DNA of 64,000 nucleotides from an uncultured Muribaculaceae bacterium (GCA_964606575.1 CAZSHA010000003.1:7570-71569); one strand, 5' to 3'; counted from the first letter of the stretch, positions 42,425-59,649 are shown. Numbers and translations: made by a program. Notes: a model not told the origin generated them from the sequence alone.

Positions 42425-42446
42425 TCAAAAAACGCTTAAAAAGTAA

Positions 42447-43817
42447 ATGATTATGAAAAATTCAATCAAACATATACTTACGGTAGCTTTAGTTACCATT
42501 TTAGGATTTTCAGCTTCGGCTCAAACCCTAAACTCACTATACTTCCTTGACGGTAATACACAACGTCACAATCTAAACCCTGCTTTCACATGTGATAAGG
42601 GGTGGATTACCACACCGCTTTTAGTTCCGTCATTGTCGGTTAATTTAAATAGCAACATCGGCTTGGAAGCTATTATGCGACCATCGACAATCAACAACGA
42701 TGAAATGGTTACATTCTTGCATCCTAGCATAACTGCCGAAGATGCAATGTCTAAGTTCCAAGACATGAACACTCTTGAAACAGACATCTCCCTAAACATC
42801 CTTACTATCGGATTTAAGGGATTCGGAGGTACTAACACCATTGCCTTGAACGTGAAAAGCAATACTGGTCTATATATTCCAAAAGACATTTTCCGTTTCC
42901 TAAAGGAAGGACAAGAGGAAGACGGTACTACCGAATACAATATTGACAACTTTGGGGTTCGCACACAAAACTATGCAGAAATCGCATTAGGTCATGCTCG
43001 TGACATCAACAGCAAGCTATCTGTCGGTGCTAAGGTTAAGTTCCTTCTAGGAGCAGGCTACGCCAATGCTGATATTGAACACATACGTATCTACATGAGC
43101 GGCAACGAATGGACTATTGAGCAACAAAGCTCACTAGTAGCATCAAAAGGTATGAGCCTAATAACTAAGGACAACGGAAAAATCGACGATTTTGAATATG
43201 AGTTCAAAATGGGCGGTTTCGGTCTTGGATTCGACCTAGGTGCAATATATCGCCTACAAGACAATTTGAACCTATCGTTTGCAATCACCGATCTTGGTTT
43301 CATCAACTGGAGCGATGCTACTAAGCACACCAACGTAAGAGAGTCTTATACTTATGACGGTTTTGACAACTTCGCTGCAGAAGAAAGTAAAGATTTCGAG
43401 GATGCCGCTGAAGACGTAGGAGATGCTCTTGAAGAATTTATCCGATTCAAAGAAGACACAGAATCTACTTCACAAACATCCTCACTTTACACAACATTCC
43501 GTGCAGGTGCTGAATATGGACTAGTTAAAGATAAAATAACTCTAGGTTTCTTAGGTACAATGAGAGTTGGCACACCTAAAACTTACACTGAAGGTATGTT
43601 AACATTGAATTTAAAGCCATCATCACACTTCAACATGGCTATTAACGGCTCATTGTCAAGCACACACGGTTCTATGGGTGCTACATTAAACTTCAATCCT
43701 AGCTTCATGAACTTCTTTATCGGAGCTGATTATTTGCTGGCAAAATACAGCAAGCAAGTTATTCCGGTCGATGCCGCTAAGTTCAACTTCGCAATGGGTA
43801 TGAGTTTCCGCCTATAA
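42447..43817 (+). CDS. outer-membrane beta-barrel protein, PorP/SprF- or DUF5723-like
   Basis: After the signal peptide ...GFSASAQ comes TLNSLYFLDGNTQRHNLNPAF (an N-terminal NPA-type motif). Alternating beta-strand patterns run throughout, and the C-terminus FNFAMGMSFRL is aromatic-rich. It starts 22 nt after the lipoprotein gene. Confidence 0.45.
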   Translation: MIMKNSIKHILTVALVTILGFSASAQTLNSLYFLDGNTQRHNLNPAFTCDKGWITTPLLVPSLSVNLNSNIGLEAIMRPSTINNDEMVTFLHPSITAEDAMSKFQDMNTLETDISLNILTIGFKGFGGTNTIALNVKSNTGLYIPKDIFRFLKEGQEEDGTTEYNIDNFGVRTQNYAEIALGHARDINSKLSVGAKVKFLLGAGYANADIEHIRIYMSGNEWTIEQQSSLVASKGMSLITKDNGKIDDFEYEFKMGGFGLGFDLGAIYRLQDNLNLSFAITDLGFINWSDATKHTNVRESYTYDGFDNFAAEESKDFEDAAEDVGDALEEFIRFKEDTESTSQTSSLYTTFRAGAEYGLVKDKITLGFLGTMRVGTPKTYTEGMLTLNLKPSSHFNMAINGSLSSTHGSMGATLNFNPSFMNFFIGADYLLAKYSKQVIPVDAAKFNFAMGMSFRL

Positions 43818-43996: not shown

Positions 43997-45331
43997 TTAC
44001 TGGTTTATGCCATATTTTTCCATACGGCGATACAACGCTCCACGACTTATGCCTAAAGCATTCGCCACTTGTGTCATATTACCTTGATGTTGAGATATTG
44101 CTGTCAATATTGCTTTTCGCTCCATATCGTCAAGCGTCATACCAGATAAGGCTTGTACGTCATCAGCAACATTCTTACTATTTTCATATTGCGACCTAAA
44201 ATCATCTAGCGAAAGCGTATCACCTGCACTAACAAGCAAAGTGCGTTCCACAAGGTTCTTCAGTTCACGTATGTTGCCCGAATATGGAAGACCTTTAAGA
44301 TAATTCATAGCATCGGTCGATACTTTCACCTTCTTGATGCCACCTGACTTGCTCATGCTCTTGATAAAATGATTGACGAGTAACGGTATATCCTCAGTAC
44401 GTTCACGCAACGGTTGCAAATGAAGCGTTATTAAATTTATACGATATAACAAATCTTCACGGAACGTGCCATTTGCCACCATACTACGCAAATCGGCATT
44501 CGTAGCAGAAATCACCCTTACATCAGTTCTGCGTTGGCGACTATCACCAAGCACCTCATAGGTTCTATCTTGCAACACACGCAACAATTTCACCTGGCAT
44601 GACTTATCCAAGTCCCCTATCTCATCTAGAAATATAGTACCCTCGTCTGCCAACTCAAAACGCCCTTGGCGATCGGACACAGCCCCAGTAAACGAGCCTT
44701 TTTTATGACCGAACATCTCGCTTTCAAACAAGCTATGTGAGATACCGCCCAAATTGACTTTAACAAATGGCTTATCAGCCCTAATGCTGTTTCGATGTAT
44801 AGCTTCAGCTATAAGTTCCTTTCCTGTTCCACTCTCGCCAGTAATAAGCACCGAAGCATTAGTCTTAGATATTCGTTTTACTGTTTCTAGAACCGATTTC
44901 AACGAGCTACTCTCGCCTATTATTCCGCATCTATCAAACTCATCGGAATTAACTGGAGCATCATCACTCAATTGTATAGCTGTTTCTATACGCTGCAACA
45001 GTGCCCTATTATCCCACGGTTTAGTTATAAAATCGAATGCTCCAGCCTTGATACCATTCACTGCAAGCTCTATACTACCCCATGCCGTCATAAGCATCAC
45101 AGGCACTTGCTGACGGAATAGCTTGACTTGCTTAAGCAAAGTCAACCCTTCTTCACCATCAGTAGACAACGAGTAGTTCATATCCATCAATATGAGCTGT
45201 GGAGCGACAGAACGCACCACATCGGCGGCTTCCGCTGGTGATGCAACCGCCTTAACCTCATATCCCGCCCTTTTCAATACAAACGATAAAGAGGAACGTA
45301 TCGCAATATCATCATCTACTACAAGTATCAT
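43997..45331 (-). CDS. sigma-54-dependent (NtrC-family) response regulator
   Basis: The receiver reads ILVVDDDIAIR. The AAA+ domain has GESGTGKE, GSFTGA (a GAFTGA-loop variant) and FLDEIGD. The C-terminal Fis-type HTH reads ISRGALYRRMEKYGI. Confidence 0.92.
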   Translation of the reverse strand: MILVVDDDIAIRSSLSFVLKRAGYEVKAVASPAEAADVVRSVAPQLILMDMNYSLSTDGEEGLTLLKQVKLFRQQVPVMLMTAWGSIELAVNGIKAGAFDFITKPWDNRALLQRIETAIQLSDDAPVNSDEFDRCGIIGESSSLKSVLETVKRISKTNASVLITGESGTGKELIAEAIHRNSIRADKPFVKVNLGGISHSLFESEMFGHKKGSFTGAVSDRQGRFELADEGTIFLDEIGDLDKSCQVKLLRVLQDRTYEVLGDSRQRRTDVRVISATNADLRSMVANGTFREDLLYRINLITLHLQPLRERTEDIPLLVNHFIKSMSKSGGIKKVKVSTDAMNYLKGLPYSGNIRELKNLVERTLLVSAGDTLSLDDFRSQYENSKNVADDVQALSGMTLDDMERKAILTAISQHQGNMTQVANALGISRGALYRRMEKYGINQ

Positions 45332-45355: not shown

Positions 45356-46828
45356 TCATTTAATTATAGCCTCAAAATCGGCATCAATTCCCGTATTTGT
45401 AGCAAAATCCCACAATGTGAGGCTTCTCAATTGATAATAGTAGTACCAATAATAAAACAACTCGTTTATACGCTTTTGCCGTGCCGTGTCCTTACTCGAT
45501 TGAGCATCATTCAAATCAAGAGTGCTAATCTTGCCTATCATAAAAGTTTCCACATTAGTATGATAACGTTTTTCGGCAATCTCATCGGCTTCACAAGCTA
45601 TCTGCAACTGCCTACGCTGGTTGTTAAACTGCTCTGTCAAGATAAACAAATCTTGGTGAAAATTCATAGTTTCTTTTCGTAACGTGCTTTGAGTAACTTC
45701 ACGGTTACTTTCAGCAACCTTCACCTGACCACGACGTTTACCCCAATCCAATATAGGAATTTTCACACCTACTTCTACAATCTGATTATCCTTCAAATGA
45801 CGATAAGAAGATGTAAAATCGCTATGAGTGCCAGTATATCCCACTTGAGCATAAAGTGAAATTTCCCTTAAATTTCCCTTGGCTTTCGCCACTTCATAAT
45901 CAGCTTCTAACTGGCGGCGGCGAATATTCAACGCAAATGAGTTGTTCTCCAATGCCTTGTCCAGCACATCCTTATATATCAATTCTACTTGCGGGATAGA
46001 ATCAGGCAGAACTGGTATCACTTCCTCCGTCTTGTCATCCAACCCAAGAAACGATATGAGTTTGAACATGTTGCTTTTCATAGAGCTTTCATTACTTGTC
46101 AAATTAGATTCAGCATTCAGCTCATTTAGTTTCAATTGCAACACATCGTTCTCACTTATCTTGCCCATCTCTCGCTTCGCTTGGGCTACCTTGTATAACT
46201 TTCTGGCATTATCCAAATTTTGCTTAGATATTGCCACGTTCTCGCGCGACATTAACAAATTAAAAAAATAGTTAATCGTGGTCAACGTCACTTCTTCAGT
46301 AGCCGATAAAAATTCAGCCTTTGCCTCCTTATATCGCAACGGCTCTATCTTGCGATTCCATTTTATAGTGTTAACTCCGAAAACAGGTTGAGTAAGAGTT
46401 AATGCTATTGGCACACTCATAAATTGGCGAGTCTTATCTCCGCTTAATTGTTTTAAGAAATCAAGCGAAGTGGATAACGACAATTTACCGCCTGTGAGCC
46501 ATATATTCTGGTCTATCGACAACTCGCCGTCAAGCCCTAAATAGTCATTTCTAACGTATGTATAGCTACCGTCGCTCTGCTGATAAGTATTATACCTCTT
46601 GTTGTAAGTAGGCAACGTGGAAGTGAAATTCACTTCGGGCAGCAAATCGGCTCGAAATGTCCGGTATTCCCAATATGCCGTTTTCAACTCGTTTAGAGCA
46701 ACAGCAGCATTCACACTGTTCTTTCGGGCAATAGCTATAGCTTCATCTAAAGTCATCTGCCGTAATACATCTTGTGCCTGAGCCGTGAATCCACACAGCA
46801 CCAATATCGACATCAATATCTTCTTCAT
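45356..46828 (-). CDS. TolC-family outer membrane efflux protein
   Basis: The signal peptide is MKKILMSILVLCGFTAQAQ. It is 490 aa with a two-repeat OEP architecture and lies in the efflux operon. Confidence 0.85.
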   Translation of the reverse strand: MKKILMSILVLCGFTAQAQDVLRQMTLDEAIAIARKNSVNAAVALNELKTAYWEYRTFRADLLPEVNFTSTLPTYNKRYNTYQQSDGSYTYVRNDYLGLDGELSIDQNIWLTGGKLSLSTSLDFLKQLSGDKTRQFMSVPIALTLTQPVFGVNTIKWNRKIEPLRYKEAKAEFLSATEEVTLTTINYFFNLLMSRENVAISKQNLDNARKLYKVAQAKREMGKISENDVLQLKLNELNAESNLTSNESSMKSNMFKLISFLGLDDKTEEVIPVLPDSIPQVELIYKDVLDKALENNSFALNIRRRQLEADYEVAKAKGNLREISLYAQVGYTGTHSDFTSSYRHLKDNQIVEVGVKIPILDWGKRRGQVKVAESNREVTQSTLRKETMNFHQDLFILTEQFNNQRRQLQIACEADEIAEKRYHTNVETFMIGKISTLDLNDAQSSKDTARQKRINELFYYWYYYYQLRSLTLWDFATNTGIDADFEAIIK

Positions 46829-46845
46829 CTTAAATCCTTTATTTA

Positions 46846-48162
46846 TTATTCATCACGCAAAGCATCAGCTGGGAGTTCCGTCACAGCCCCACTAACAGGA
46901 ATAAGCGTTCCTATCAATGTGGTTACAAGCATTATAACATAAGTAACCGCACTCACAACGGTAAACGTTTTTATCGTATCATTCTGCCAATAGCTTTTAT
47001 CTGCCACGTCGTTATCGGAGAATATAAACACGCCTAGATTTTCAGACCACAGACCGTTCTTGTTCACATATAAAGCAACAAGCGACAAACTTACGACAAG
47101 CGCAAACGTAAGCAACATTGACGATTCCGCGCAGAACTGTCTTAAAATGCTCCATTTTGAAGCACCTATACTACGCATTATTCCTATCTCTTGGCGACGA
47201 GTACTAACCCTTATCCAGAACGTACCCACTATTCCTAAGAAAGCACATACAATTCCAAACAGAGCAAACGAGCTATTTAAACGCATTTTATTATACTCAC
47301 CCGTATCTTCAGCAAGCGTAACCGACATTTCATCGAAAGACGTGATACCTGAAACATAAAAATTTCCCGACTTCAATTCAGGTTGTACCTCAGTTTCAAA
47401 ACGTTTCTCAAAATCACTGGCACTCACTCCGTCCTTCAAGCGAAATATAATACAATAGTCATAACCAAACATGCTTGGATTCATTGAGATAACCACAGGA
47501 TATGGCTGGCAATAGTCACGTGCCTTATAATTCTCAAACACCCCTGCTATCTTCAACTTTTTTCCACTGTGATAATATTCTTTTCCCGCTACGTCACTAG
47601 TGCCGAACAACTGTTTTGCTAGATTCTCCGATAGATATTTATAATTATCGGCATCACCTTCTGGCACAACTTTCATTATTTCGCCAGTATTCACATCTTT
47701 AATACCTAAAGTGGTAAACATATCACTACCTTCCATTAGCACTGTAAAGTAGTCAAATGCAAGTATTTTGCTAGTCTGTGTCTTTGTCGTGTCTGCTACC
47801 ATTCCGCCACTTATATTTAACGCCGATGCATTTGGCATAGAGAAATCCATGTTTAACGAGAAACTTTTCACCTCTGGTAAATGCTTTATTTCTCTAACTA
47901 TATTCATATAATGCATCCTTTTTATGGAATCACTTGCCTCAGCATCCTTATCGTAAGTAGGATGCAACTGAGGAAGTCGCTCCAAATTAACCCTATAGGT
48001 TCTAGATGTATCATGACCATTAGGAATGTTCTTATTAGCAATCTGCACACATAACGGATTAAGCACAATCCACAAGAAACAGCCCACTAATAGTAACTCA
48101 AAGAATATCCACACGTTAGATTTACGTTGACTCCACAACTGCCTTAAAATTAACCTTATCAT
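46846..48162 (-). CDS. FtsX/MacB-type ABC permease, subtype A, copy 1
   Basis: The N-terminus is MIRLILRQLWSQRKSNVWIFFELLLVGCFLW. TM1 is followed by a large periplasmic domain and three C-terminal TMs. The C-terminus is ELPADALRDE. Confidence 0.85.
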   Translation of the reverse strand: MIRLILRQLWSQRKSNVWIFFELLLVGCFLWIVLNPLCVQIANKNIPNGHDTSRTYRVNLERLPQLHPTYDKDAEASDSIKRMHYMNIVREIKHLPEVKSFSLNMDFSMPNASALNISGGMVADTTKTQTSKILAFDYFTVLMEGSDMFTTLGIKDVNTGEIMKVVPEGDADNYKYLSENLAKQLFGTSDVAGKEYYHSGKKLKIAGVFENYKARDYCQPYPVVISMNPSMFGYDYCIIFRLKDGVSASDFEKRFETEVQPELKSGNFYVSGITSFDEMSVTLAEDTGEYNKMRLNSSFALFGIVCAFLGIVGTFWIRVSTRRQEIGIMRSIGASKWSILRQFCAESSMLLTFALVVSLSLVALYVNKNGLWSENLGVFIFSDNDVADKSYWQNDTIKTFTVVSAVTYVIMLVTTLIGTLIPVSGAVTELPADALRDE

Positions 48163-48169
48163 AGTAACA

Positions 48170-49459
48170 TCAATGCTTTTGGTTCAATGAATAAACAATA
48201 TTTTTACGTAACGATAATAATGCCGGTACAATTCCCGAAATGAGATTCAAGACAAACACCAGAATCAACATTCCGCCAAATACGGTCCAATTGAACAACA
48301 TTTCCAGCGACAATTTATCGGCTGCAACACCCGAGCGGTTTTTGCCGCTTTCATCAAATAACGTTATAAACCAGTCACCTGCCGTTACAGCTATCATGTA
48401 GCATAACGCCAACCCCAAAAGACCGCCTATTAAAGTCAAAACGAGATTTTCCCACATCACTTGCGATAATATCGAACCGTTAGTTGCACCAAACACCTTG
48501 CGTATACCCATTTCTGGCAAGCGGTCGTTCATCTTAGAAGATATAAGCCCACTTAAATTCAACGCCGGTATCAAAAGCAATGCAAGTAGTATGTACCAGA
48601 ATTTTTCCATTCCTGCTTCATTTTCATCCAAACCAAATGAGATTTCAAACTGCTTAAAGGGTCTGTCATCCCAGATAGAATATATAAACTCTTTGTCTTG
48701 ACTATTATATTTGTCAAACACAGCTTTCACATCTTCCGCCAATGCGGCTTCATCACCAGAATTTCTTACAGTCATAAATATATAGCAAGAACCTATCATC
48801 CACGATTTGCCAAAAATAGTTTCATTTAAATTAAGAGGAATCCACATATCAGCTACCGTTACTTCAGACATTGACCGTGCCACATCTTTCACTACAGCGC
48901 ACACCCGCTTTGCCACTCCATCTACTAGCACCGTTTTACCTACGGCATCATCGCTATTAAATATTTTCTTAGCAAAACTGCTTGTCACTATTACCTTGCT
49001 GGAAGCGGAAACTATATCATCTCTGCTAAAAGGCTTACCTGATATAAATTCAAAATCGAACACATTCCAATACCCATCATCAACTTTCAACTGCGTGCCT
49101 TTTACCGACCCTTTCAGCTTATCGGTTTCTACTTGCACTTCTCTCGCTGGAACTATACCAGAAATATACTCCAAATGCGGCATATCTCTCATCAGCTCCA
49201 CCCATTTATAATTAGCACGTGCTGTTCTTGTATTCCTATTAAGCGTATCACGTGTAGTTTGCCTTATTGTTTTTATTACAAATGTCCTATCACGATTATA
49301 CTCTGGATAAAGCGGAGCTGCCTTAATATATAATATTATTATCAATATCATAGCAAGCCCAACTGATAACGCTGTTCCAGCAATGTAAATGCCTGAATAC
49401 AGCTTGTTCTGCCTCAACAGTGTCCATGCCTGACGTATGTATAATCCTATCTTATTCAT
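48170..49459 (-). CDS. FtsX/MacB-type ABC permease, subtype B, copy 1
   Basis: The N-terminus is ...IRQAWTLLRQNKLYSGIYIAGTALSVGLAM...YPEYNRDRT, and the C-terminus is ...LRKNIVYSLNQKH. Confidence 0.85.
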   Translation of the reverse strand: MNKIGLYIRQAWTLLRQNKLYSGIYIAGTALSVGLAMILIIILYIKAAPLYPEYNRDRTFVIKTIRQTTRDTLNRNTRTARANYKWVELMRDMPHLEYISGIVPAREVQVETDKLKGSVKGTQLKVDDGYWNVFDFEFISGKPFSRDDIVSASSKVIVTSSFAKKIFNSDDAVGKTVLVDGVAKRVCAVVKDVARSMSEVTVADMWIPLNLNETIFGKSWMIGSCYIFMTVRNSGDEAALAEDVKAVFDKYNSQDKEFIYSIWDDRPFKQFEISFGLDENEAGMEKFWYILLALLLIPALNLSGLISSKMNDRLPEMGIRKVFGATNGSILSQVMWENLVLTLIGGLLGLALCYMIAVTAGDWFITLFDESGKNRSGVAADKLSLEMLFNWTVFGGMLILVFVLNLISGIVPALLSLRKNIVYSLNQKH

Positions 49460-49522
49460 TATTTCACTTATTTATAGGCATTGATAATATTCATGCCGAT
49501 TTATCGACTTCGTTGTTCACTC

Positions 49523-50197
49523 TCAACAAACCTGGCGACCATCGAAGAATCGAACTATACGATCGGTCAACTTAGCTTGCTCCTCATTGTGAGTAACCAT
49601 AACGATAGTTCTACCGTCCTCCTTGTTTAACTGATGCAATATACCCATTACCTCTGCACCCATTTTGGAGTCTAGATTACCAGTAGGTTCGTCAGTGAGT
49701 ATAATCTCTGGCTCGCCTATTATAGCACGAGCTATTGCCACACGCTGACATTGACCGCCCGAAAGCTGTGAAGGCATGTGACGCATACGATGACTCAACC
49801 CCACCCTTTCCAATACGGCTTTAGCCTTTGCCACCGACTCACTATGAGAAACTCCACGATAAATCAATGGCAATTGAACATTATCAAGCACATTAAGCGA
49901 CGGTATCAAATGGAACGACTGGAACACGAATCCCAATGTCGCATTACGGAACTTCGCCAATTCGCTGTCCTTCATCTTTGTATCAATCTTCTTGCCGTTT
50001 ATTTCTATAGTTCCGCTTGTAGGAGCATCAAGCAAGCCTATTATGTTCAACAATGTTGACTTTCCGCAACCCGATGGTCCCATTATGCTCAAAAACTCAC
50101 CTTTCTCTACTAGCAAATTAACATTTTCTAGTGCTTGTGTTTCAATCTCATCAGTGTGGTAAACCTTGTTTATACCAGTCAATTTAATCATTTCCAT
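49523..50197 (-). CDS. ABC transporter ATP-binding protein (LolD/MacB-NBD type); the only NBD in the operon
   Basis: Walker A is GPSGCGKST, the signature is LSGGQCQRVAIARA, and Walker B is IILTDEPT. Confidence 0.93.
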   Translation of the reverse strand: MEMIKLTGINKVYHTDEIETQALENVNLLVEKGEFLSIMGPSGCGKSTLLNIIGLLDAPTSGTIEINGKKIDTKMKDSELAKFRNATLGFVFQSFHLIPSLNVLDNVQLPLIYRGVSHSESVAKAKAVLERVGLSHRMRHMPSQLSGGQCQRVAIARAIIGEPEIILTDEPTGNLDSKMGAEVMGILHQLNKEDGRTIVMVTHNEEQAKLTDRIVRFFDGRQVC

Positions 50198-50236
50198 AAT
50201 GTTGTTTATTTTAATTTGTTATTAATATTTTAATTT

Positions 50237-51559
50237 TCACTCGTCACGCAAAGCATCAGCTGGAAGCTCTTGCGACACCTTTAGCACTGGAACTATTGTT
50301 CCTACTAATGCCGTTGCTGTTATCACCAGCCAAGTTATAGCCGAAATCACAGCATAATGCTTCAATGGATTGTTTTGCCAATACTCAGGATTATAATTCC
50401 TTATGGTCATGCCACCCAATGGTTGCGCAAAAAATCCGTTATTGTATACATAATACCCCATAAGCAACAGCACCATTACAAATGCTATTGAAACCAGCAT
50501 CATTGTTTCCGTTACAAATTGTGCTGAAATCTGGGTTGTTGAAGCACCTATACTACGCATCACGCCTATCTCCTGCCTACGGTTTTTAGCTTTAACCCAA
50601 AAAGTTCCTATAGTTCCTAAAAGCACGCACAACAAGCCGAACGAAGCTAATAATATATTTCTCCTTATTACATTAAACACACCGCTCACCTCGCCAAAAT
50701 CATCGGAAATCTTATCCATTGCTATAAGCCCTTTGCAATAATAATTACCTGCTCTAGCGGCATTATTTTCAAAATTTCGCATGAAATCTGCCTTATCAGC
50801 CGAACTTTTCAACTTCACTATAAGATTGTAATAATTATTCATCTCAGTCGTAGGTTCTAGATTTGGTTTCACGTATACGACCATATACTCTGGTTGGTCA
50901 TAGTCCCTAAATTTATAAGAAGCAAAAACTCCAGCTATCTCTGCTTGATACAAAGTAGAACCATTATTAACCCATACTTCTTTACCTTGTACACTCTCGT
51001 CTACTGAAATAGCTTTCGCCATATCTTCCGACACATAAATCTGTCCGTTAACTCCAGCATTTGTGTCTACCGACAAGACTTCACCAGTCCTCGCATCCTT
51101 TAGACCATAAGTTCGCAGCATATCACCCTTTCCTTCTTGATAGAATACGTATCGTATACCTAAAATATATTTGCCAGACATGACATCAGTACTATCCCGA
51201 TACAAGAATGTACCCATAACACCTCGACTATTAGGATAATTCTGAGAGCCTGTCACAGCATAACAATCAATTTCGGGCATAGATACTATTTGATTTACGA
51301 TTTGCTTATAATACTCACAGTTTAACGAATCGTTTTCAATTTCTGCATTAAATTCCAATTGTTTATCGGAATATTTTCTAATATCCACTAAGTATAGTTC
51401 TTGGGTGTCACGCCCTGAATCCATTACAAGCGTTCCTAGAAAAACGCACAACGGATCCAGCACAACCCATAACAACAAGCCAGCAAACATCAGTTCAAAG
51501 AATATCCAAGCATTATTCCTACGCTCGTACCACAATCGGTTGAATATAATCCTAAACAT
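50237..51559 (-). CDS. FtsX/MacB-type ABC permease, subtype A, copy 2
   Basis: The N-terminus is MFRIIFNRLWYERRNNAWIFFELMFAGLLLW, and the C-terminus is ELPADALRDE. Confidence 0.85.
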   Translation of the reverse strand: MFRIIFNRLWYERRNNAWIFFELMFAGLLLWVVLDPLCVFLGTLVMDSGRDTQELYLVDIRKYSDKQLEFNAEIENDSLNCEYYKQIVNQIVSMPEIDCYAVTGSQNYPNSRGVMGTFLYRDSTDVMSGKYILGIRYVFYQEGKGDMLRTYGLKDARTGEVLSVDTNAGVNGQIYVSEDMAKAISVDESVQGKEVWVNNGSTLYQAEIAGVFASYKFRDYDQPEYMVVYVKPNLEPTTEMNNYYNLIVKLKSSADKADFMRNFENNAARAGNYYCKGLIAMDKISDDFGEVSGVFNVIRRNILLASFGLLCVLLGTIGTFWVKAKNRRQEIGVMRSIGASTTQISAQFVTETMMLVSIAFVMVLLLMGYYVYNNGFFAQPLGGMTIRNYNPEYWQNNPLKHYAVISAITWLVITATALVGTIVPVLKVSQELPADALRDE

Positions 51560-51567
51560 AACTCCTC

Positions 51568-52884
51568 CTACTTTTTAGAATTTAAAGAATTAATAATCGA
51601 GCATCTCAATGCTAAAGCTGCAGGTATAATTGCCGACACGACATTCAACACGACACAAAATAACAATGTACAGCAGAACACGGGCAGATTAAACAACATT
51701 CCAGTTGTGATATTGCCTGATAATACAGGAGGTTTACTATTGCTTTCACTTAAAATTGAGGTTATCCAACTATCAGCTGACACAACAATGATAAAACATA
51801 ATATCAAGCCCAAAACGCCACCAATAAACGTCAATAGCAAATTTTCCCAAAACACTTGAGAAAGCAACATAGAATTAGTTGCCCCGTAAGATTTCCTTAT
51901 CCCCAGTTCAGATCTACGGTCACTCATTTTTGATGAAATTAATCCGCTCAAATTCATAGCTGGTATTATCAACAATGCTAACAATATATATATTAATCCA
52001 TCCGCAATGCCAGAAATATATGATCCGCTAAATATAGCCTCGCTCATCACAACAGGTCTATCGGGTATAATGTAATTATACACTTTATCTTGCTCGCTAT
52101 ACTTATTGATGTTATCCATAGCCTCCTCACACAAAGCATCCACAACTCCGCTTGATTTAGCCGTAAGCAGTACTGTGATGTCACCCATCAATCCGTTTGA
52201 GCCTACAGCATTCAAATCGTCTTCATTATCAAAAGGCAACCACATATCACTCGTCACATACGACGACATTGAAGCTGGAACATCTTTCACCACACCGCAC
52301 ACCACGTATGGAATATTGTCCACATTCACAGTCTTACCGACCACCCTATCGGTAGCAAATAGTTGCTTTGCCAAACTTTGTGACAAAACAAGTGTTTTTG
52401 AAAATGACGTAACATCATTTTGATTGAAAGGCTTACCACTTAAAAACTCAAATCCGAAAACGCTCCAATATCCGCCATCAACACCTAGTGGCGTACATTC
52501 TACCTCAGTTTTAGTATTAGGATTCATGACAATTTTAGGCTTATCCATAAATCCGTTATATTTTTTCACTGCACATGCACTTTCCAGATGTGAAAGCCCT
52601 TTCATCATCTTCAGCATATAGTAAGATGCACGATTACCCCACACGTCTTTCTTGTTTGTCGTGTCTTTTGGCACACGAAAAACTTCTGAAATCACCAAGG
52701 TTCTATCTCTATTGTATTCTGGATATATAGATGCGATGTTTACATAAAGCACAATGAACAATGTCATAGCAAGTGCTATAGATAGCCCAGTTCCAGCTAT
52801 ATATATACCCGAGAATAAACGATTTTGCCTTATAATCGTCCAAGACTGCAATATATATAATCTTACCAAACCCATTTTGCCCAT
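51568..52884 (-). CDS. FtsX/MacB-type ABC permease, subtype B, copy 2
   Basis: The N-terminal region reads ...ILQSWTIIRQNRLFSGIYIAGTGLSIALAM...YPEYNRDRT, and the C-terminus is ...LRCSIINSLNSKK. Confidence 0.85.
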   Translation of the reverse strand: MGKMGLVRLYILQSWTIIRQNRLFSGIYIAGTGLSIALAMTLFIVLYVNIASIYPEYNRDRTLVISEVFRVPKDTTNKKDVWGNRASYYMLKMMKGLSHLESACAVKKYNGFMDKPKIVMNPNTKTEVECTPLGVDGGYWSVFGFEFLSGKPFNQNDVTSFSKTLVLSQSLAKQLFATDRVVGKTVNVDNIPYVVCGVVKDVPASMSSYVTSDMWLPFDNEDDLNAVGSNGLMGDITVLLTAKSSGVVDALCEEAMDNINKYSEQDKVYNYIIPDRPVVMSEAIFSGSYISGIADGLIYILLALLIIPAMNLSGLISSKMSDRRSELGIRKSYGATNSMLLSQVFWENLLLTFIGGVLGLILCFIIVVSADSWITSILSESNSKPPVLSGNITTGMLFNLPVFCCTLLFCVVLNVVSAIIPAALALRCSIINSLNSKK

Positions 52885-52893
52885 TGTTTTTAT

Positions 52894-54207
52894 TTATTCG
52901 TCACGCAAAGCATCGGCAGGAAGCTCCTGTGATGCCTTTACCACTGGTATCACAGTCCCTATAATTGATGTAACAAGCATTATAAGATATGTAACTGCCG
53001 AAACAACGACAAAACGTAGAATGTCATTATTTTGCCAATATTGCGGATCTAACTTCTCAAAATTAGTCCTTACACGAGTGAAAAATCCCTCTTTATACAC
53101 ATAGATACCAATAAGTACAAGCACTATAGCAAAAGCTATTGTAACCATATTCAACGATTCTGCCAAGAACTGCTCAACTATCTTTCTTTTTGATGCACCG
53201 ATACTACGCATCACCCCTATTTCTTGCCTACGAGCCTCGGTTGTAATCCAGAATGTTCCCACCATGCCTAAGAATACGCATAACACGCCAAATATAACGA
53301 ATATAGTGTTTTTACGGAACTCGTTATGCACTCCCGATTGTTCATTATACTCATAATTCATGCTTACATAAGAATCAATACCGGAACAATAAAAATTACC
53401 AGCTTTAAGAGTAGGCTTAACCTCAGTATTAAATCTATCAACAAATTCTTTCTCATTCACACCATCCTTCAACTTCAAGAAAAGGTTAACCTTATAAACC
53501 GATTTTCCTTTTAAGCCGTTTACAACATGAATAACATGCTTGACTGGTTGCATCATTTCTCTGAATTTATAAGTTTTGAACACACCGCCTATTTCATAAT
53601 CATTTATATCATCTATAGTACCAGTCCATATAGTTTTACCTACAATATCGGCAGTACCGTATAACGAAAGAGCTAAATCCTCCGACACATATACGAGTTG
53701 TCGCACAGCTGCATCTTTATCTATCGTCATCGGCTTATTTGTCAACGCATTCATAAATCCGAAAGTCTTGAACATATCACTGCCCGCCTCCTGATAAGTA
53801 TAATTAACTACATGTAACTCGCTTTTTGCCTCTCTTATATTAGCACTATCTTTCAATGCGAAATCACTCATATTATTGCCACTATTAGGATAATCCCACA
53901 TAAATGCATAATCTGCGATTTCTGGCATGTTAGCAAGCGTTGTATATAAATGCCTATAATGCTCTTTACACAATTCAGCACTATCAATAGAGGCATTATA
54001 TCTAATGCTATTCTCACCGTATTTCTTTATACTCACCTTGTATACTCCTTTGTCATCCCACCCCTTAGGTAGCGACTTATCGGCATAATTGACACATAAA
54101 GGATCTAGTATCGACCACAAGAATATTCCGGCTATAATCAGTTCCAAGAAAATCCAAACGTTTTGTTTACGCTGGTTCCATAATTGTTTCAAAATCAATC
54201 TTAACAT
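52894..54207 (-). CDS. FtsX/MacB-type ABC permease, subtype A, copy 3
   Basis: The N-terminus is MLRLILKQLWNQRKQNVWIFLELIIAGIFLW, and the C-terminus is ELPADALRDE. Confidence 0.85.
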   Translation of the reverse strand: MLRLILKQLWNQRKQNVWIFLELIIAGIFLWSILDPLCVNYADKSLPKGWDDKGVYKVSIKKYGENSIRYNASIDSAELCKEHYRHLYTTLANMPEIADYAFMWDYPNSGNNMSDFALKDSANIREAKSELHVVNYTYQEAGSDMFKTFGFMNALTNKPMTIDKDAAVRQLVYVSEDLALSLYGTADIVGKTIWTGTIDDINDYEIGGVFKTYKFREMMQPVKHVIHVVNGLKGKSVYKVNLFLKLKDGVNEKEFVDRFNTEVKPTLKAGNFYCSGIDSYVSMNYEYNEQSGVHNEFRKNTIFVIFGVLCVFLGMVGTFWITTEARRQEIGVMRSIGASKRKIVEQFLAESLNMVTIAFAIVLVLIGIYVYKEGFFTRVRTNFEKLDPQYWQNNDILRFVVVSAVTYLIMLVTSIIGTVIPVVKASQELPADALRDE

Positions 54208-54215
54208 AGCTGATA

Positions 54216-55538
54216 TTATTTTTTTAGGTTTAACGAATTAATAATTGTTTGGCGTAATGCCACAACTGCCGGTATAATAGCTGAAACAATGTTTAAAATA
54301 AAGCATATCAAAAGTGTGAACATGAACACTTGCCAATTGAAAAGCATTGCCGGCGATAATTTTCCGCTCGTCAACGTTACATTATAATCTACGGCTGTAT
54401 TGAACAAAGCAATCATCCACTCCTGGGTTGTAAACACCACAAGCAAACATAAAACCAACCCAACAACACCGCCTATCGTGGTCAACAACATATTTTCCCA
54501 TAGCACTTGAGATAGCAACATGCCGTTTGTCGCTCCATAGGTTTTGCGTATACCCAATTCAGGTAAGCGCTTATTCATCTTCGACGAAATGAGTCCGCTA
54601 AGGTTCAAAGCAGGTATGAATATAAGGGCTAGCAATATATACAAAAGTTTATTAGACATTTCTAGACCATTCTCGGTCATAGTCTTAAAAATATTATTTA
54701 TATACAAATCCGGACCAAACTTAACACTATGCTCATATTTTTTATCTTGCTGGCTGAAACGCTTGAACACATCATTTATTTCGGCTTTTAGTTCATCTAC
54801 GTCATTGTTGCTCTTAGCCACCAACAACAATTTTAAATCACCCATCAAAGACTCCGTGTTATTCACATATTCTTGATTAGGAGCTACTGAATATGGCAGC
54901 CATATATCAGATGTCGTATAGTTAGACATTGCCGACGGTACGTCTTTTACTACTCCGCACACCTTATATTCTACGCCATTTATATGTAACAGTTTACCGA
55001 CAACATCATCGGAAGCATATATAAGTTTCGCAAAACTTTGCGATAACACAGCTACTCTCGTGAACGATTCAAAATCGACTTTATAGAACGGCTTCCCATG
55101 TAGAAAATTAAAATCGAACACTCTCCAATATCCATCATCTACATAAAGCGGAAACGCTGGATATTGTTCTTGAGAACCTGCCACTTCAATATAGCTTTCA
55201 GAACCCGCCTCATAATAATTCTGCGTAGATGCTCCTATCTCCTCTAGATGAGGTAAGTTTTCCAACATCTTCAATAAATTGTAAGATGCTAAACGATTCA
55301 TACTCTCTATTCTACCTCCTGTAGTATCTCTCAATGCCTTCTGCACGTAAACGACTTCTAGCGTGCGATCACGCTTATATTCAGGATAAAGCGGAGCCGT
55401 TTTCACATATATCACAATAAATAAGGTCATTATCAAGGCTATAGATAATCCGGTTCCTAGCACATAAATAGCTGAAAACAATTTATTTTGTTTAGCTATT
55501 GCCCATGACTGACGTATGTACAATTTTATATTTCTCAT
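54216..55538 (-). CDS. FtsX/MacB-type ABC permease, subtype B, copy 3
   Basis: The N-terminal region reads ...IRQSWAIAKQNKLFSAIYVLGTGLSIALIM...YPEYKRDRT, and the C-terminus is ...LRQTIINSLNLKK. Confidence 0.85.
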   Translation of the reverse strand: MRNIKLYIRQSWAIAKQNKLFSAIYVLGTGLSIALIMTLFIVIYVKTAPLYPEYKRDRTLEVVYVQKALRDTTGGRIESMNRLASYNLLKMLENLPHLEEIGASTQNYYEAGSESYIEVAGSQEQYPAFPLYVDDGYWRVFDFNFLHGKPFYKVDFESFTRVAVLSQSFAKLIYASDDVVGKLLHINGVEYKVCGVVKDVPSAMSNYTTSDIWLPYSVAPNQEYVNNTESLMGDLKLLLVAKSNNDVDELKAEINDVFKRFSQQDKKYEHSVKFGPDLYINNIFKTMTENGLEMSNKLLYILLALIFIPALNLSGLISSKMNKRLPELGIRKTYGATNGMLLSQVLWENMLLTTIGGVVGLVLCLLVVFTTQEWMIALFNTAVDYNVTLTSGKLSPAMLFNWQVFMFTLLICFILNIVSAIIPAVVALRQTIINSLNLKK

Positions 55539-55561: not shown

Positions 55562-56806
55562 TTATTTGAACCCTACAGTCTTATTAGACTTGAAACGTTT
55601 CATGTCACTTATCACAACTTGATCTCCTTCTTTCAAGCCACTCACCACTTCCACATAATCATAGCTGCTCTCGCCAAGCTCTACTACACGTTTAACAAGT
55701 TCGTCGTTTTCTTCCACAAACAAGCTATATTCGCCAGCACCCACATAAAAAGATGAATTTGGCAATCTAAGTACATTTTCTTTTATAGAATTCACTACAA
55801 ATATATCGGCTCTCAAACCAGAGCGTAAACGCTTATGGTTATCATCTTTAAGCATCACAGTAAAGTGTATCACTCCGTTTTTGCTTAACGGATTAACACT
55901 TCCCACCGTTCCTTCCATATTCTCATTTCCAATCTTCACTATCACTTTTCCACCAGCCTGTACATACTCGCCGTAGGCATCAGCTATAGTTCCGTCTACC
56001 CTGAAATGACTCAAATCGCTCACTACGGCAATCTTACTGCCTTGGCTCACTTGCGCTCCCACTTCATCTACAATCTCTGTTATTATTGCCTTCCTTGGTG
56101 AACGTATTTGGGCATCTTCCAATGTACGCTTAATTTCAGCCAAATTGCGGCTAGCCACATTTATAACAAGCTGTTTTTCCCTTTCATCGGCAGCTTTCAT
56201 TTTTCGCTCGTTTACCAACTGTTGGCGCAACTGCTCTAATTCCAGTCGACTTGTGTTGCATGAGAACTCCACCTCTTTCACCTTATCATGCGTTCCTGAG
56301 CCCAAGCTGTCAAGATAACGTTCGTTTCTCAACTCTGCTTCTAGGCGGTCAAGCTTCATTGCCGCAACTTTAACTTTCATAGCCAAATCATCAAGATAAG
56401 TCTTATTGCTTATCTTTAACCGTTCAAACTCGCTATAACGCATTTTTAACTGGTCTGCCTCACGCTGATAGTCATCTTCGGCACTTTGCAAGTCCAAACG
56501 TAGCAACGGAGTTCCTTCATCCACCGCATCACCGCTATGATGATATATTTCTTTTATCTGAGAATTTATAGGGCAAGTTATCATTTCTTGTTTTGAAGGA
56601 ACTACAGTTCCAGAGCCAGTCAAACTAGGTTCTATATCACCACGCCCAACGATGGCTATATTTATATCGCTTCTTTTCACCTCGGCTTGCGAAAGATCAA
56701 ATATGAATGCTACAATTGCTACACACACAGCCACAGCTATGGCTATACGCAATATCATCTTATTCCTACGTTTCTGTTTTTCTTCTTTCGATATTTCTCT
56801 GTCCAT
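55562..56806 (-). CDS. HlyD/MacA-family periplasmic adaptor (membrane fusion protein)
   Basis: I chose the start at Met45 of the track ORF (MDREISKEEKQKRRNKMILRIAIAVAVCVAIVAF; cat at 56804-56806), which leaves room for the promoter. The protein has a single TM, a coiled-coil hairpin and barrel domains. Confidence 0.85.
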   Translation of the reverse strand: MDREISKEEKQKRRNKMILRIAIAVAVCVAIVAFIFDLSQAEVKRSDINIAIVGRGDIEPSLTGSGTVVPSKQEMITCPINSQIKEIYHHSGDAVDEGTPLLRLDLQSAEDDYQREADQLKMRYSEFERLKISNKTYLDDLAMKVKVAAMKLDRLEAELRNERYLDSLGSGTHDKVKEVEFSCNTSRLELEQLRQQLVNERKMKAADEREKQLVINVASRNLAEIKRTLEDAQIRSPRKAIITEIVDEVGAQVSQGSKIAVVSDLSHFRVDGTIADAYGEYVQAGGKVIVKIGNENMEGTVGSVNPLSKNGVIHFTVMLKDDNHKRLRSGLRADIFVVNSIKENVLRLPNSSFYVGAGEYSLFVEENDELVKRVVELGESSYDYVEVVSGLKEGDQVVISDMKRFKSNKTVGFK

Positions 56807-56839: not shown

Positions 56840-56858
56840 GAACATATACCGTGCCAAA
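56840..56858 (-). promoter_or_regulatory. candidate sigma-54 (-24/-12) promoter of the efflux operon
   Basis: The minus strand reads TTTGGCACGGTATATGTT. The -24 element TGGCAC is perfect (56856-56851). The -12 element ATGT deviates from TTGC, retaining the G with C changed to T. It lies about 35 nt upstream of the adaptor ATG, and an NtrC-type activator is encoded in the same locus. Confidence 0.5.
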
Positions 56859-56900
56859 ATCATAAACCACTGATTAGCAAGGTATAGCATTTTCAAGAAG

Positions 56901-56929
56901 TGTCCATTTTCGGACAGTATGTCCATTTT
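56901..56929 (-). promoter_or_regulatory. candidate enhancer/UAS: TGTCC-N6-GGACA palindrome plus an extra GTCCATTTT half-site
   Basis: The sequence is TGTCCATTTTCGGACAgtatGTCCATTTTT, located 45-75 nt upstream of the -24 element. This is the typical position for bEBP binding sites. Confidence 0.35.
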
Positions 56930-56937
56930 TATGAACA

Positions 56938-58239
56938 CTATGAGAATCTTATAGAGAAGCGTGTTATACCATCATCGCCAGTACGTAATGAGAATTGGCA
57001 ATTATGCTTCATTAACACCTCACGGATAAAAATTAATCCCAATCCTTGTCCGTTAGGCTTAGTAGAAAAGAATGGAGTGAACAATTTATCGGCAGTTTCA
57101 GAGCTAATTCCCTTGCCATTATCAGCAATTTCTATAGTGGGTGACGGTATCTTTTTTGTGGTTATTACAATCTTTCCGCTACGCCCTATACTTTCTACGC
57201 TATTCTTAATGATATTTACAAGTACATGCTCTATAAGAACTGAATCTATAGAGATAGGAAGTTCTCCATTATATAACTTCATTTCTATGTTTATATCAAA
57301 ATTGCCGCACAAGTTTTCCATTACGGTTTTACATCGATTTGCACACACGTTCAAGTCTTCTGTATTCAACACAGGTTCTGGAATCTTCACAACCTCAGCA
57401 AATCGTGTTATAAAATTGCTCATACCGTAACAGCGTTCTATACACATCTGCATAACCTCTTGCAAATCGGAAGTATCGTCGATTGAGTCAAGAGCATCTT
57501 TCAATGAATCTAATGAAGAGGCAACTCCCGCGACACTATTATTAACCTCATGAGCTATCATGCGTATCACTTTCTCGTATGCTTTCTTTTCGGCTTTCAT
57601 CACCTCTGTCGTCAAGCTCTCTATCAATATAAACGGATGATAAAACCCCCTATCTACAAATGACAAACGTGAACAACGATAGATCATAGCATCGCCAACA
57701 CGCACCGTTTCTGTAGAGCCTTGAGTCAACTCACAAAGCCTCTCAGCCAGCGGAGATGGCAAATTCTTCAGGTGCTTTCCTAATGCATCGTCCTCATTCT
57801 CGCACGAAAGAAATCCTATTGCCGACGAATTAATAGAGCTAATCTCACCATCGAAGTTCAGTATCACTACCCCCATAGGAGATTTTTTTATAATTAACTC
57901 CAAAAAGAAATTTTGCTCATGCACACGCAAACGCTCGGTCTTCAATTGAGCCATCATCCTATTGAACAAATCCACTATGCGATCGGCATCATGCTGATTC
58001 ACAGGCGACAAACGGCTTCCAAAATCTTGTTCTTTCAGAAGTTCGACTCCATTGACAACTATATTCAACGTTTTAAGCACTTTAACATAGAAATATATCA
58101 TGAAGCACACGCACAAGAACAAAAAGCCCTCGGCATAATAAAGCATGTCGCTATCTAACTTTGCCGAAATAGCTATCAACATGCCACCTGCCAAAAGCAA
58201 TAACACCACCAGAATGATAAATAAAGTCCTTAACCTCAT
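56938..58239 (-). CDS. NtrB/AtoS-like sensor histidine kinase
   Basis: It has two N-terminal TMs, a PAS-like segment, the H-box RMIAHEVNNSVAGV, and the ATPase boxes DNGKGIS and GQGLGLIF. Confidence 0.88.
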   Translation of the reverse strand: MRLRTLFIILVVLLLLAGGMLIAISAKLDSDMLYYAEGFLFLCVCFMIYFYVKVLKTLNIVVNGVELLKEQDFGSRLSPVNQHDADRIVDLFNRMMAQLKTERLRVHEQNFFLELIIKKSPMGVVILNFDGEISSINSSAIGFLSCENEDDALGKHLKNLPSPLAERLCELTQGSTETVRVGDAMIYRCSRLSFVDRGFYHPFILIESLTTEVMKAEKKAYEKVIRMIAHEVNNSVAGVASSLDSLKDALDSIDDTSDLQEVMQMCIERCYGMSNFITRFAEVVKIPEPVLNTEDLNVCANRCKTVMENLCGNFDINIEMKLYNGELPISIDSVLIEHVLVNIIKNSVESIGRSGKIVITTKKIPSPTIEIADNGKGISSETADKLFTPFFSTKPNGQGLGLIFIREVLMKHNCQFSLRTGDDGITRFSIRFS

Positions 58240-58345: not shown

Positions 58346-58975
58346 ATGGAAATTACATTCCTACTCATAGTAGAAATAATTGGCACTTTAGCATTTGCTA
58401 TAAGCGGTATAAGGCTTGCTGCCGTAAAGCATTTCGATTGGTTCGGGGCATATATAGTAGGATTAGTCACTGCCATAGGTGGCGGTACTATACGTGATCT
58501 GTTCCTTAGCACTACCCCTTTCTGGATGCTCAATTACTGGTATCTTATAGTTACCGCTATTGCCTTGGGGTTGGTAATTATATTTAAAAAATATCTGGTA
58601 AGGCTAGACCACACGGTATTTATTTTCGATACCATAGGACTCGCTTTATTTGTCGTTATCGGAATGCAAAAATCTCTTGATTTCGGTTTTCCTATGTGGG
58701 TGGCGATTATCATGGGTACAATCACCGGGGCTTTCGGAGGTGTACTGCGTGACATTCTCATTAACGAGGAGCCTCTTATCTTCCGAAAAGAGGTGTATGC
58801 GACAGCTTGCATCGCTGGCGGGCTTATATATTGGATAATATATTGTATGAACGGTTCAACCGTGCTACAGCAAGTGGCATGCGCGAGTATCATCATAGTT
58901 GTGCGTATCCTTTCCGTCATCTATAATTGGAGATTGCCTATTTTAGGCAACGAGAACAAGGACAAAACATCATAA
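58346..58975 (+). CDS. trimeric intracellular cation channel (TRIC/UPF0126, YadS-like) family protein
   Basis: A two-fold repeat with glycine-rich motifs is present: AIGGGTIRD and AFGGVLRD. It has seven predicted TMs. Confidence 0.8.
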   Translation: MEITFLLIVEIIGTLAFAISGIRLAAVKHFDWFGAYIVGLVTAIGGGTIRDLFLSTTPFWMLNYWYLIVTAIALGLVIIFKKYLVRLDHTVFIFDTIGLALFVVIGMQKSLDFGFPMWVAIIMGTITGAFGGVLRDILINEEPLIFRKEVYATACIAGGLIYWIIYCMNGSTVLQQVACASIIIVVRILSVIYNWRLPILGNENKDKTS

Positions 58976-58983
58976 CAGCATTT

Positions 58984-59649
58984 ATGGCTAAAAAAATAGA
59001 ATCTAAAACTGCGCTATCCTGCCTACTGGCAGTAATTAACGCTCTCATTATATTGCCTATCATCGACAGGCTTGGCATCGGGTATGTCAATGCTCTCTCT
59101 ATAACTATTTTGTCAATAGGAGTTTTCCTAATTGATAGCCGTAGAGGCAACCTCAATCGTTCGTTCTTATCATCGCTAGTTTTCATGGCTACTGCTCTCA
59201 CTTTAGACAACGCATACAAAGATACGTTCGTAATATTACCCATGCTGACTCAAATATTCGGTATATTACTTATCATAGGCTTATTCTTTTTAACTCCATT
59301 CATCGTGAATTGGATGTTGAAACATTTCCAGAGGCATCCAGAGGCATTGCTGATAACCGGACGTATTATCGCTACAGTCGCAGCCGGTGGAGCAGTCTTA
59401 TTTATCCTGCTTAAGTCTGGATTAACGTTAAATATTGAGCCTTATGTTATAAGTATAACTCAAGGATGGACATTCTGGTCGCTATTTGTAACAGCATGGA
59501 TCTTCATCCAACTATACCAAATATGGCGTAACAAAAGGGATTTAACCGCCAATCACCGTTTTCTTTATAATGCTGTGGCACTATACTTATTATCGCTGAT
59601 TATATACATCGGATATATCCGTGATGCAATAATAATCCAAAATTTATAA
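58984..59649 (+). CDS. polytopic membrane protein, function unknown
   Basis: I chose the start at the ATG at 58984 (MAKKIESKTALSCLLAVINALIIL). There are about 6 hydrophobic helices and no motif I recognise. Confidence 0.5.
   Translation: MAKKIESKTALSCLLAVINALIILPIIDRLGIGYVNALSITILSIGVFLIDSRRGNLNRSFLSSLVFMATALTLDNAYKDTFVILPMLTQIFGILLIIGLFFLTPFIVNWMLKHFQRHPEALLITGRIIATVAAGGAVLFILLKSGLTLNIEPYVISITQGWTFWSLFVTAWIFIQLYQIWRNKRDLTANHRFLYNAVALYLLSLIIYIGYIRDAIIIQNL

Follow-up and report, generated by a model that had tools for sequence, protein, structure and literature searches.

Multiple permease pairs encoded with a single ATPase in MacB-type tripartite export loci of Muribaculaceae and other Bacteroidales

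In reviews covering MacB and tripartite pumps, ATP-binding cassette (ABC) permeases of this group are presented as homodimers (MacB and FtsX), as a heterodimer (LolCE), or in fused forms (BceB and YbbP) (PMC5985334, PMC8277102). Several permease pairs per ATPase are not mentioned in these reviews (PMC5985334, PMC8277102), and a literature search found no paper on multipair, single-ATPase operons of the MacB type. Work on MacB-type pumps has dealt with homodimers in which a given adaptor and duct go with one transporter. The locus presented here lies in a 64,000-nucleotide (nt) stretch of DNA from an uncultured Muribaculaceae bacterium (GCA_964606575.1, CAZSHA010000003.1:7570-71569), which is referred to below as the window. 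It encodes six permeases in three tandem pairs, each composed of one B-type and one A-type gene, together with one stand-alone ATPase, one periplasmic adaptor, and one TolC-like outer membrane factor. This multicassette layout is real and common, and it was not found described in the literature searched. The locus is best filed as a multicassette variant of a pump of the MacAB-TolC or VarACDEF type. With moderate confidence, we consider its best explanation as a whole to be a MacAB-TolC-like pump in which three alternative B-A cores would be carried on a shared chassis.

The characterized pump VarACDEF of Vibrio cholerae, which makes cells modestly resistant to multiple drugs, macrolides among them, is built from two permeases with four transmembrane (TM) helices each, a stand-alone ATPase, an adaptor, and a duct (PMC5595328). 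By subunit plan, it can be likened to a one-pair form of the system in the window, but it differs in having one pair only, LysR-type regulation, and a beta-lactamase link. MacAB-TolC (type VII ABC; structures 5NIK, 5LIL, and 5GKO) shares with the window the four TMs, the periplasmic domain between TM1 and TM2, the coupling helix between TM2 and TM3, and an adaptor and TolC-like duct encoded alongside, and both A and B match MacB best in sequence and in fold. However, MacB is a homodimer whose nucleotide-binding domain (NBD) is fused at the N terminus, whereas the window encodes a separate NBD and two different permeases in three pairs. LolCDE resembles the window system in combining a heterodimer of paralogous 4-TM permeases with a stand-alone ATPase dimer (PMC5985334, PMC8277102) but has no adaptor or duct. 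In ADOP proteins (TIGR03434) and fused two-module FtsX permeases such as Escherichia coli YbbP, the N-terminal module is similar to B and the C-terminal module is similar to A, but both are carried on one polypeptide of ~800 amino acids (aa), whereas the window modules are separate genes.

Gene calling in the window placed the operon on the minus strand, as are all features given below unless noted otherwise, with 11 genes and intergenic gaps of 7 to 63 nt. The transcription order is histidine kinase, sigma-54-type promoter, adaptor, B3, A3, B2, A2, ATPase, B1, A1, TolC-like outer membrane factor, and sigma-54-dependent response regulator. An earlier interpretation made without database searches (the sequence-only reading) had listed the genes from adaptor to regulator; the coordinates and order of that set were borne out by gene calls and Pfam matches, and the list lacked the kinase gene (56938..58239), located upstream on that strand. 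The adaptor (55562..56806; 414 aa) is a membrane fusion protein (MFP) of the HlyD/MacA type with one N-terminal TM anchor and matches to TIGR01730, HlyD_3, and HlyD_D23, and its score against TIGR01730 (RND_mfp) was 106.6 bits, above the cutoff of 94.9. Because a length of 414 aa agrees with the ~415 aa of its orthologs, its start is most likely the ATG at 56806 and not the GTG at 56938. The ABC ATPase (49523..50197; 224 aa; PF00005, 123 bits) is the sole one of the operon. On reading of its sequence, all of its motifs are intact (Walker A GPSGCGKS, LSGGQ, Walker B ILTDE, and the H-loop), and its nearest NCBIfam models are those for DarD, LolD, and the MacB NBD, each of which it matched below the cutoff. 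The TolC-like factor (45356..46828; PF02321 OEP, 143.7 bits; cutoff, 22) is 60 to 80% identical to its orthologs. As in other tripartite pumps, an adaptor and an outer membrane factor are encoded with the transporter, and nearly all related loci have one gene for each. The source assembly (2.29 Mb, 125 contigs, ~92% complete) contains nine FtsX-domain genes, six of which are within the operon. Other FtsX-family genes elsewhere in the genome could fill the Lol and FtsX roles.

The six permeases are B3 (54216..55538; 440 aa), A3 (52894..54207; 437 aa), B2 (51568..52884; 438 aa), A2 (50237..51559; 440 aa), B1 (48170..49459; 429 aa), and A1 (46846..48162; 438 aa). All six reading frames are intact, none of the copies is broken, the family-invariant residues are kept in all, and all six scored above the Pfam threshold for FtsX (PF02687). 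The MacB periplasmic core domain (MacB_PCD, PF12704) was matched by B1 to B3 at 62 to 74 bits (cutoff, 27). A1 to A3 had no Pfam match to PF12704 at an E value of ≤0.001; many A homologs do carry a precomputed PF12704 match, the periplasmic domain of A3 can be described as divergent and MacB-like, and the structural model of A1 aligns to the MacB periplasmic-domain structures 5lj8, 3ftj, and 5c59. Identities were 37 to 43% among the A proteins, 43 to 51% among the B proteins, and 17 to 20% between A and B, and pairwise identities and trees separated the six into two clades, A and B, as the sequence-only reading had proposed. The terminal motifs that it had listed (ELPADALRDE in A; YPEY(N/K)RDRT and SLN.K(H/K) in B) are present, except that B2 reads ILQ where IRQ had been given.

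Hydropathy indicated one TM, ~250 residues, and then three TMs for the permeases. The AlphaFold2 models of A1 and B1 (mean predicted local distance difference test scores, 90.7 and 83.4) have the same arrangement, with an alpha/beta periplasmic domain of ~250 residues between the first TM and the remaining three. The permeases therefore combine the features of the type VII ABC (MacB/FtsX) superfamily, namely, four TMs, with TM1 and TM2 separated by a large extracytoplasmic domain, and a C-terminal FtsX domain. The best Foldseek match of both models was Acinetobacter baumannii MacB (5gko; E = 1.7e-14 for A1 and 2.4e-19 for B1), with LolE, LolC, HrtB, YbbP, BceB, and BceAB-S structures among the lower matches. 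A profile search of PDB sequences likewise ranked MacB at the top for A (E = 1e-16) and B (E = 1e-25), followed by Spr0695, YtrF, LolF, and LolE. Because sequence and fold searches both ranked MacB first, the permeases are regarded as MacB-like. The earlier likening of each pair to a LolC/LolE-type heterodimer rather than a MacB homodimer stands for the subunit arrangement only; sequence comparison and predicted fold bring the permeases closer to MacB than to LolC/LolE.

Four described families were considered for the locus, and no permease reached the cutoff of the MacB, LolCE, ADOP, or DarB equivalog models. The permeases scored 21 to 70 bits against MacB proper (NF007826; cutoff, 966), and the NBD is a separate gene rather than an N-terminal fusion. 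Scores against LolC/LolE (TIGR02212) were 26 to 30 bits (cutoff, 362), with an adaptor and an outer membrane factor in the operon and a fold rank below that of MacB, and membership of the LolCDE type was rejected on model scores and fold rank. Scores against ADOP (TIGR03434) were 49 to 124 bits (cutoff, 622), the modules being separate genes coding for 429 to 440 aa. For the darobactin exporter DarBCD (NF038007/8/10), the NBD scored 261 versus a cutoff of 375 bits, the adaptor 84.8 versus 450 bits, and the permeases 18 to 22 versus 700 bits.

The association of B with A was followed in an ortholog set of 26 loci from other Muribaculaceae (56 B-A pairs) and in a full count of ~79 pairs from 35 loci, which covered Muribaculaceae, other families, Bacteroides, a close strain of the window bacterium, and a second locus type. 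Every pair was adjacent, with B before A (~79/79), unpaired A or B genes were found in no locus, and A and B copy numbers were always equal. Maximum likelihood trees of the 56 A and 56 B proteins contained two matching deep clades (23 and 33 members) and matching subclades. The A and B identity matrices were strongly correlated (r = 0.94; maximum over 2,000 label permutations, 0.17), and in 41 of the 56 cases, the nearest A neighbor and the nearest B neighbor came from one pair. These mirrored trees indicate coduplication and coinheritance of the pair.

Profiles of A and B were also scored on the N and C halves of 11 fused ~800-aa permeases from other Bacteroidales. The B profile scored 50 to 112 bits on the N half of 10 fusions and 14.5 bits on that of the remaining one, compared to −1 to 32 bits on the C halves, and it exceeded the A profile on the N half in 10/11 fusions. 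On the C half, the A profile scored 42 to 69 bits and was above B in all 11. Along the NCBIfam ADOP model, B aligned to positions 10 to 400 and A to positions 470 to 803. The B-then-A gene order thus matches the N-to-C order of natural fusions, which is a classical argument for two proteins in one complex. Strict B-A adjacency, mirrored trees, fusion colinearity, and the whole-cassette indel described below all argue that the B-A pair is one evolutionary unit and probably also one physical unit. The pattern of adjacency, coevolution, and fused homologs was that of a heterodimeric unit, and the heterodimer reading is well supported by this comparative evidence.

The number of pairs per ATPase was variable. 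With an A-type profile, the system was found in 64 of 151 sampled Muribaculaceae genomes, with one A copy in 39, two in 16, three in 7, four in 1, and five in 1; two or more copies were therefore present in 25/64 carriers and three or more in 9/64. Each of the 26 Muribaculaceae loci contained one adaptor, one ATPase, one outer membrane factor, and one to four permease pairs, as well as the regulator pair where the contig allowed, and the pairs were located variably in the adaptor-ATPase, ATPase-duct, or duct-regulator interval. In other Bacteroidales families, the system was found in 12 of ~198 sampled genomes. Five pairs were present in genome G280 (order, MFP-(BA)x3-NBD-(BA)x2) and three in genome G259. 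A human-gut Bacteroides locus (WP_118465169.1, "MULTISPECIES: ABC transporter permease [Bacteroides]") with the order MFP-(BA)x3-NBD-BA-DUF2807-BA-BA contained at least six pairs and one ATPase within the 21 kb seen. A single ATPase gene was present in 34/35 loci. The exception, in genome G282 (L123, G282:C2:548000-566000), had three pairs and two ATPase genes in the order MFP-BA-NBD-BA-NBD-BA-OMP, where OMP is the outer membrane protein, and indicates that the ATPase can be duplicated along with a cassette. In Bacteroidales, loci with a single ATPase commonly carry from one to at least six pairs, a variable feature that is not peculiar to this genome, and the view that three pairs on one ATPase are unusual was not upheld.

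A second, more distant locus type was found on four contigs (L125 to L128: G018:C35, G016:C33, G090:C25, and G134:C25), with the order MFP-NBD-B-A-OMP followed by a short response regulator and a kinase. It contains one pair, B then A, and its regulator (173 to 189 aa) is apparently without the sigma-54 AAA+ domain. This type coexists with the main type in genomes G018 and G134. In Bacteroides metagenome contigs (L113 to L115), a gene encoding a 206-aa DUF2807 protein was observed among the B-A pairs (locus positions 16050 to 16670).

Among the window paralogs, identity was lowest in the periplasmic domains (29 to 33% for A and 34 to 42% for B) and in the TM3-TM4 loop (27 to 41%). It was higher in the N terminus and TM1 (54 to 68%), in the C-terminal tail (50 to 88%), and in the cytoplasmic loop between TM2 and TM3 (61 to 75%), which carries the E-x-G-x5-G-A motif and corresponds to the coupling helix of MacB-type proteins, and it reached 83 to 87% in TM2 of B. 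The earlier claim that the periplasmic domains diverge far more than the TM parts is thus largely correct, the exception being TM3 of A (33 to 52%), which is hardly better conserved. Conserved coupling parts combined with divergent periplasmic domains are the pattern expected if the pairs dock to one ATPase and present different cavities. The same conservation of the dimer-interface helices (TM2 of B) and the coupling loop could also be taken to favor a promiscuous assembly, in which any B might join any A, or homodimers might form, to give up to nine or more pump cores, and MacB itself is a homodimer (PMC5985334, PMC8277102). We consider such promiscuity improbable, however, given the equal copy numbers without any unpaired A or B gene, the codivergence of A and B within each cassette, and the fused homologs that tie one B-like to one A-like module.

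Comparison with a near-identical strain (GCA_052830625.1; L116, JAZMDC010000066.1) showed the same neighborhood with pairs 3 and 1 only. DNA identity to the window was 98.5% and 96.6% on the two sides of the gap, and the missing segment (window 52884-50290) corresponds exactly to B2 plus A2. The 65 nt shared by the two alignments lie in the conserved stretch at the 3′ end of the A genes that encodes ELPADALRDE. The conserved A3 3′ end at this indel junction (52881..52926, plus strand) belongs to a repeat family (D4) with further copies at 46833-46878 and 50224-50269. An exact B2-A2 indel at conserved 3′ ends indicates that a cassette is gained or lost as a unit via recombination between conserved gene ends.

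Nonsynonymous-to-synonymous substitution ratios (dN/dS) relative to the close strain, which cover pairs 1 and 3 because pair 2 is absent from that strain, were 0.15 for A1, 0.14 for B1, 0.14 for A3, and 0.48 for B3 (11 substitutions only), compared to 0.04 for the ATPase, 0.11 for the adaptor, and 0.13 for the duct. By these estimates, purifying selection acts on pairs 1 and 3. The amino acid differences in A1, B1, A3, and B3 between the two strains were concentrated in the periplasmic domains (47/57; Fisher's exact test, P = 1e-4). Synonymous divergence (dS) between the window and the close strain was a mosaic (0.17 to 0.18 in pair 1, 0.13 in the ATPase, 0.09 in the kinase, and 0.014 to 0.04 in pair 3), which suggests recombination between strains within the operon.

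The duplications that produced the three pairs are old, because the window-pair branch lengths are 0.55 to 0.86 and DNA repeats between cassettes are only 60 to 82% identical over short stretches. Recent gene conversion between pairs was considered and rejected on the basis of that repeat identity. The three window pairs and the single pair of a genome from another genus (G012) form one clade with support of 100/100 in both trees, within which pairs 2 and 3 are sisters (support of 100/99 in the A tree and weaker in the B tree). These results bear on whether the three pairs might be redundant copies with one job, kept for dosage or robustness. All pairs are alike in fold and motifs, a single pair suffices in 39/64 genomes, and the close strain is without pair 2 in an otherwise unchanged locus, all of which fit redundancy. 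Dosage copies are usually young and similar, whereas the window copies are old, are only 37 to 51% identical with divergence focused on the periplasmic domains, and are under purifying selection, and we consider simple redundancy unlikely.

In the mechanism that we favor, of three alternative cores on one chassis, the operon would be transcribed from the sigma-54 promoter before the adaptor gene and would be activated by the two-component pair that it encodes, in which the kinase is without a periplasmic sensor domain and the activator is of the NtrC type. In the membrane, one B and one A would form a heterodimer equivalent to a fused two-module ADOP-type permease that has been split. The lone stand-alone ATPase would energize this heterodimer as a dimer, and the one adaptor would couple it to the one TolC-like duct. 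Such sharing is the simplest reading because NBD, adaptor, and duct are each encoded once in the locus. The three cassettes would be old paralogs in which the ATPase-docking cytoplasmic elements have been kept and divergence has been mainly periplasmic, and it is the periplasmic domains that form the substrate cavity in MacB. Kept docking elements together with periplasmic divergence point to three alternative pump cores, most likely with differing substrate ranges, which may act in efflux from the periplasm or the membrane. Cassettes would be gained or lost whole by recombination at the conserved gene ends. As to substrates, analogy alone prompts the guess that they are antimicrobial peptides or further toxic, amphipathic compounds present in the gut.

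Several observations weigh against this reading. One adaptor would need to dock three diverged periplasmic domains. Cophylogeny is expected from the coinheritance of adjacent genes and alone is no proof of physical pairing, and the A profile fails to tell the N half from the C half in ~4/11 fusions. The two NBD genes for three pairs in genome G282 imply that ATPase sharing is not obligatory. Finally, the dN/dS value of B3 is high relative to those of the other permeases, though it is based on those few substitutions.

A bolder form of the proposal is a cartridge-type machine, in which swappable B-A cartridges on a fixed ATPase-adaptor-duct chassis would enter and leave genomes through recombination at conserved gene ends and so tune the substrates per strain, and the kinase may read the pump load, as in Bce systems, and drive sigma-54-dependent autoinduction. 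This form is tentative, and we would sooner doubt it than rely on it; if true, type VII ABC exporters in Bacteroidales would follow a general and so far undescribed principle of design. One energizer serving several alternative modules is known from energy-coupling factor (ECF) transporters, in which one EcfAA′T module serves several S components, and from multitask ATPases of the MsmX/MsmK type. Those shared-motor systems are importers with unrelated folds, unlike the pump proposed here, and the reviews cited above describe no such sharing for type VII exporters (PMC5985334, PMC8277102). If sharing holds for the window locus, shared-motor logic, which is not known to us outside ECF and MsmX-type importers, would be added to tripartite exporters.

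Genes of COG0577 were noted in 2007 to be enriched in adult gut microbiomes (PMC2533590), and MacB-family counts have been tabulated for Bacteroides, with up to 19 matches to one TC entry in Bacteroides fragilis and the architecture unanalyzed (PMC6281302). Nothing relevant was found in a paper on bile fitness of B. fragilis. The layout reported here, if correctly interpreted, would give a concrete architecture to the expanded "antimicrobial peptide permease" (COG0577) genes of gut Bacteroidales. The copy number of 1 to at least 6, its variation even among strains with 97 to 98% identity, and the periplasmic divergence together suggest a fast-adapting defense or export trait in gut commensals, and the trait is open to experiment because the locus is also carried by cultured Bacteroides.

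Relationships of the operon to those of other genomes did not follow genus membership. Same-genus genomes (L009, L011, L012, and L099) carry permeases of a different subclade, 26 to 28% identical to those of the window, in another gene order. The operon genes were closest to those of genome G012 (L008), with identities of 85% for the ATPase, 79% for the duct, 71% for the adaptor, and 71% and 65% for the regulators, and the same-genus ATPase (~75%) and duct (~64%) were below these values. None of the window flanking genes was found beside related loci within the fetched flanks. The closeness to G012 and the unshared flanks suggest movement of the whole operon between lineages, possibly by horizontal exchange.

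The predicted sigma-54-type promoter is TGGCACGGTATATGT (56842..56856), which reads TGGCAC-N5-ATGT from 56856 to 56842, has TGGCAC as its −24 element and an imperfect −12 element, and ends 36 nt upstream of the adaptor ATG. It lies within the 131-nt gap between that ATG (56806) and the kinase gene. A match of the type TGGCAC-N5-NNNN was present near the adaptor start in 21/24 related loci, mostly with the consensus TGGCACG(G/A)T..(T/A)TG(C/T), compared to a chance expectation of ~0.1 TGGCAC per 450-nt window. Upstream of the predicted promoter, two AAAATGGACA repeats around the palindrome GGACAtacTGTCC (56895..56936; palindrome also detected at 56912-56924) were read from the sequence as putative activator-binding sites. 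The response regulator (43997..45331) combines Response_reg, Sigma54_activat (PF00158, 229.9 bits), and HTH_8 domains and contains GSFTGA at residues 212 to 217. The genome encodes rpoN (at G000:C37), so that a predicted promoter, an enhancer-binding protein with GSFTGA, and the sigma factor gene are all present. In a 2025 in silico study, a link between sigma-54 promoters and COG0577 permeases was independently drawn for Bacteroidia (PMC12316311). A scan of the operon for sigma-70 promoters and terminators, which is ill-suited to Bacteroidota, gave no enrichment over shuffled sequences (57 versus 49.8 and 7 versus 8.3, respectively). In relatives, the operon has the regulator and kinase genes at its 3′ end, an arrangement implying autoinduction; the window kinase gene is upstream of the promoter.

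The kinase (Pfam HATPase_c and HisKA, with a HAMP/PAS-like region before HisKA) has TMs at residues 6 to 24 and ~40 to 58 by hydropathy. Because about 10 residues separate these helices, the kinase is predicted to be without a periplasmic sensor domain. Among its orthologs, two TMs with a loop of ≤10 residues were found in 20/21 and a single TM in 1/21. By analogy only, it resembles intramembrane-sensing kinases such as BceS. The BceAB-BceRS systems of Firmicutes similarly combine an FtsX-family transporter with a two-component system whose kinase is without an extracellular sensor domain, but BceB is a single 10-TM protein, BceR is of the OmpR type, and adaptor, duct, and sigma-54 are absent. 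The kinase topology raises the alternative that some of the window pairs are mechanotransmission or sensor modules, either reporting load as in BceAB-BceS or acting on a periplasmic partner as in FtsEX and LolCDE. The family does have nontransporting members (FtsEX, LolCDE, and BceAB-S), which are present among the fold matches, and nearly all kinase orthologs share the absence of a periplasmic sensor domain. However, the same kinase topology occurs in one-pair loci, whose pair must also be the pump core, the cytoplasmic PAS-like region could sense alone, and the gene content of the operon includes no periplasmic partner gene. A sensor role for some of the pairs is therefore regarded as unlikely, and alternative pump cores are preferred for all three.

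Two further features of the neighborhood were observed on the plus strand. At 40643-43817, a gene for a 593-aa protein (no Pfam match) is followed by one for a DUF5723 protein, convergent with the operon end and kept in the close strain. Downstream of a glycine-transporter-family gene, at 58927-59649, an open reading frame of 240 aa had no Pfam match, and the close strain carries a 221-aa gene in the same place.

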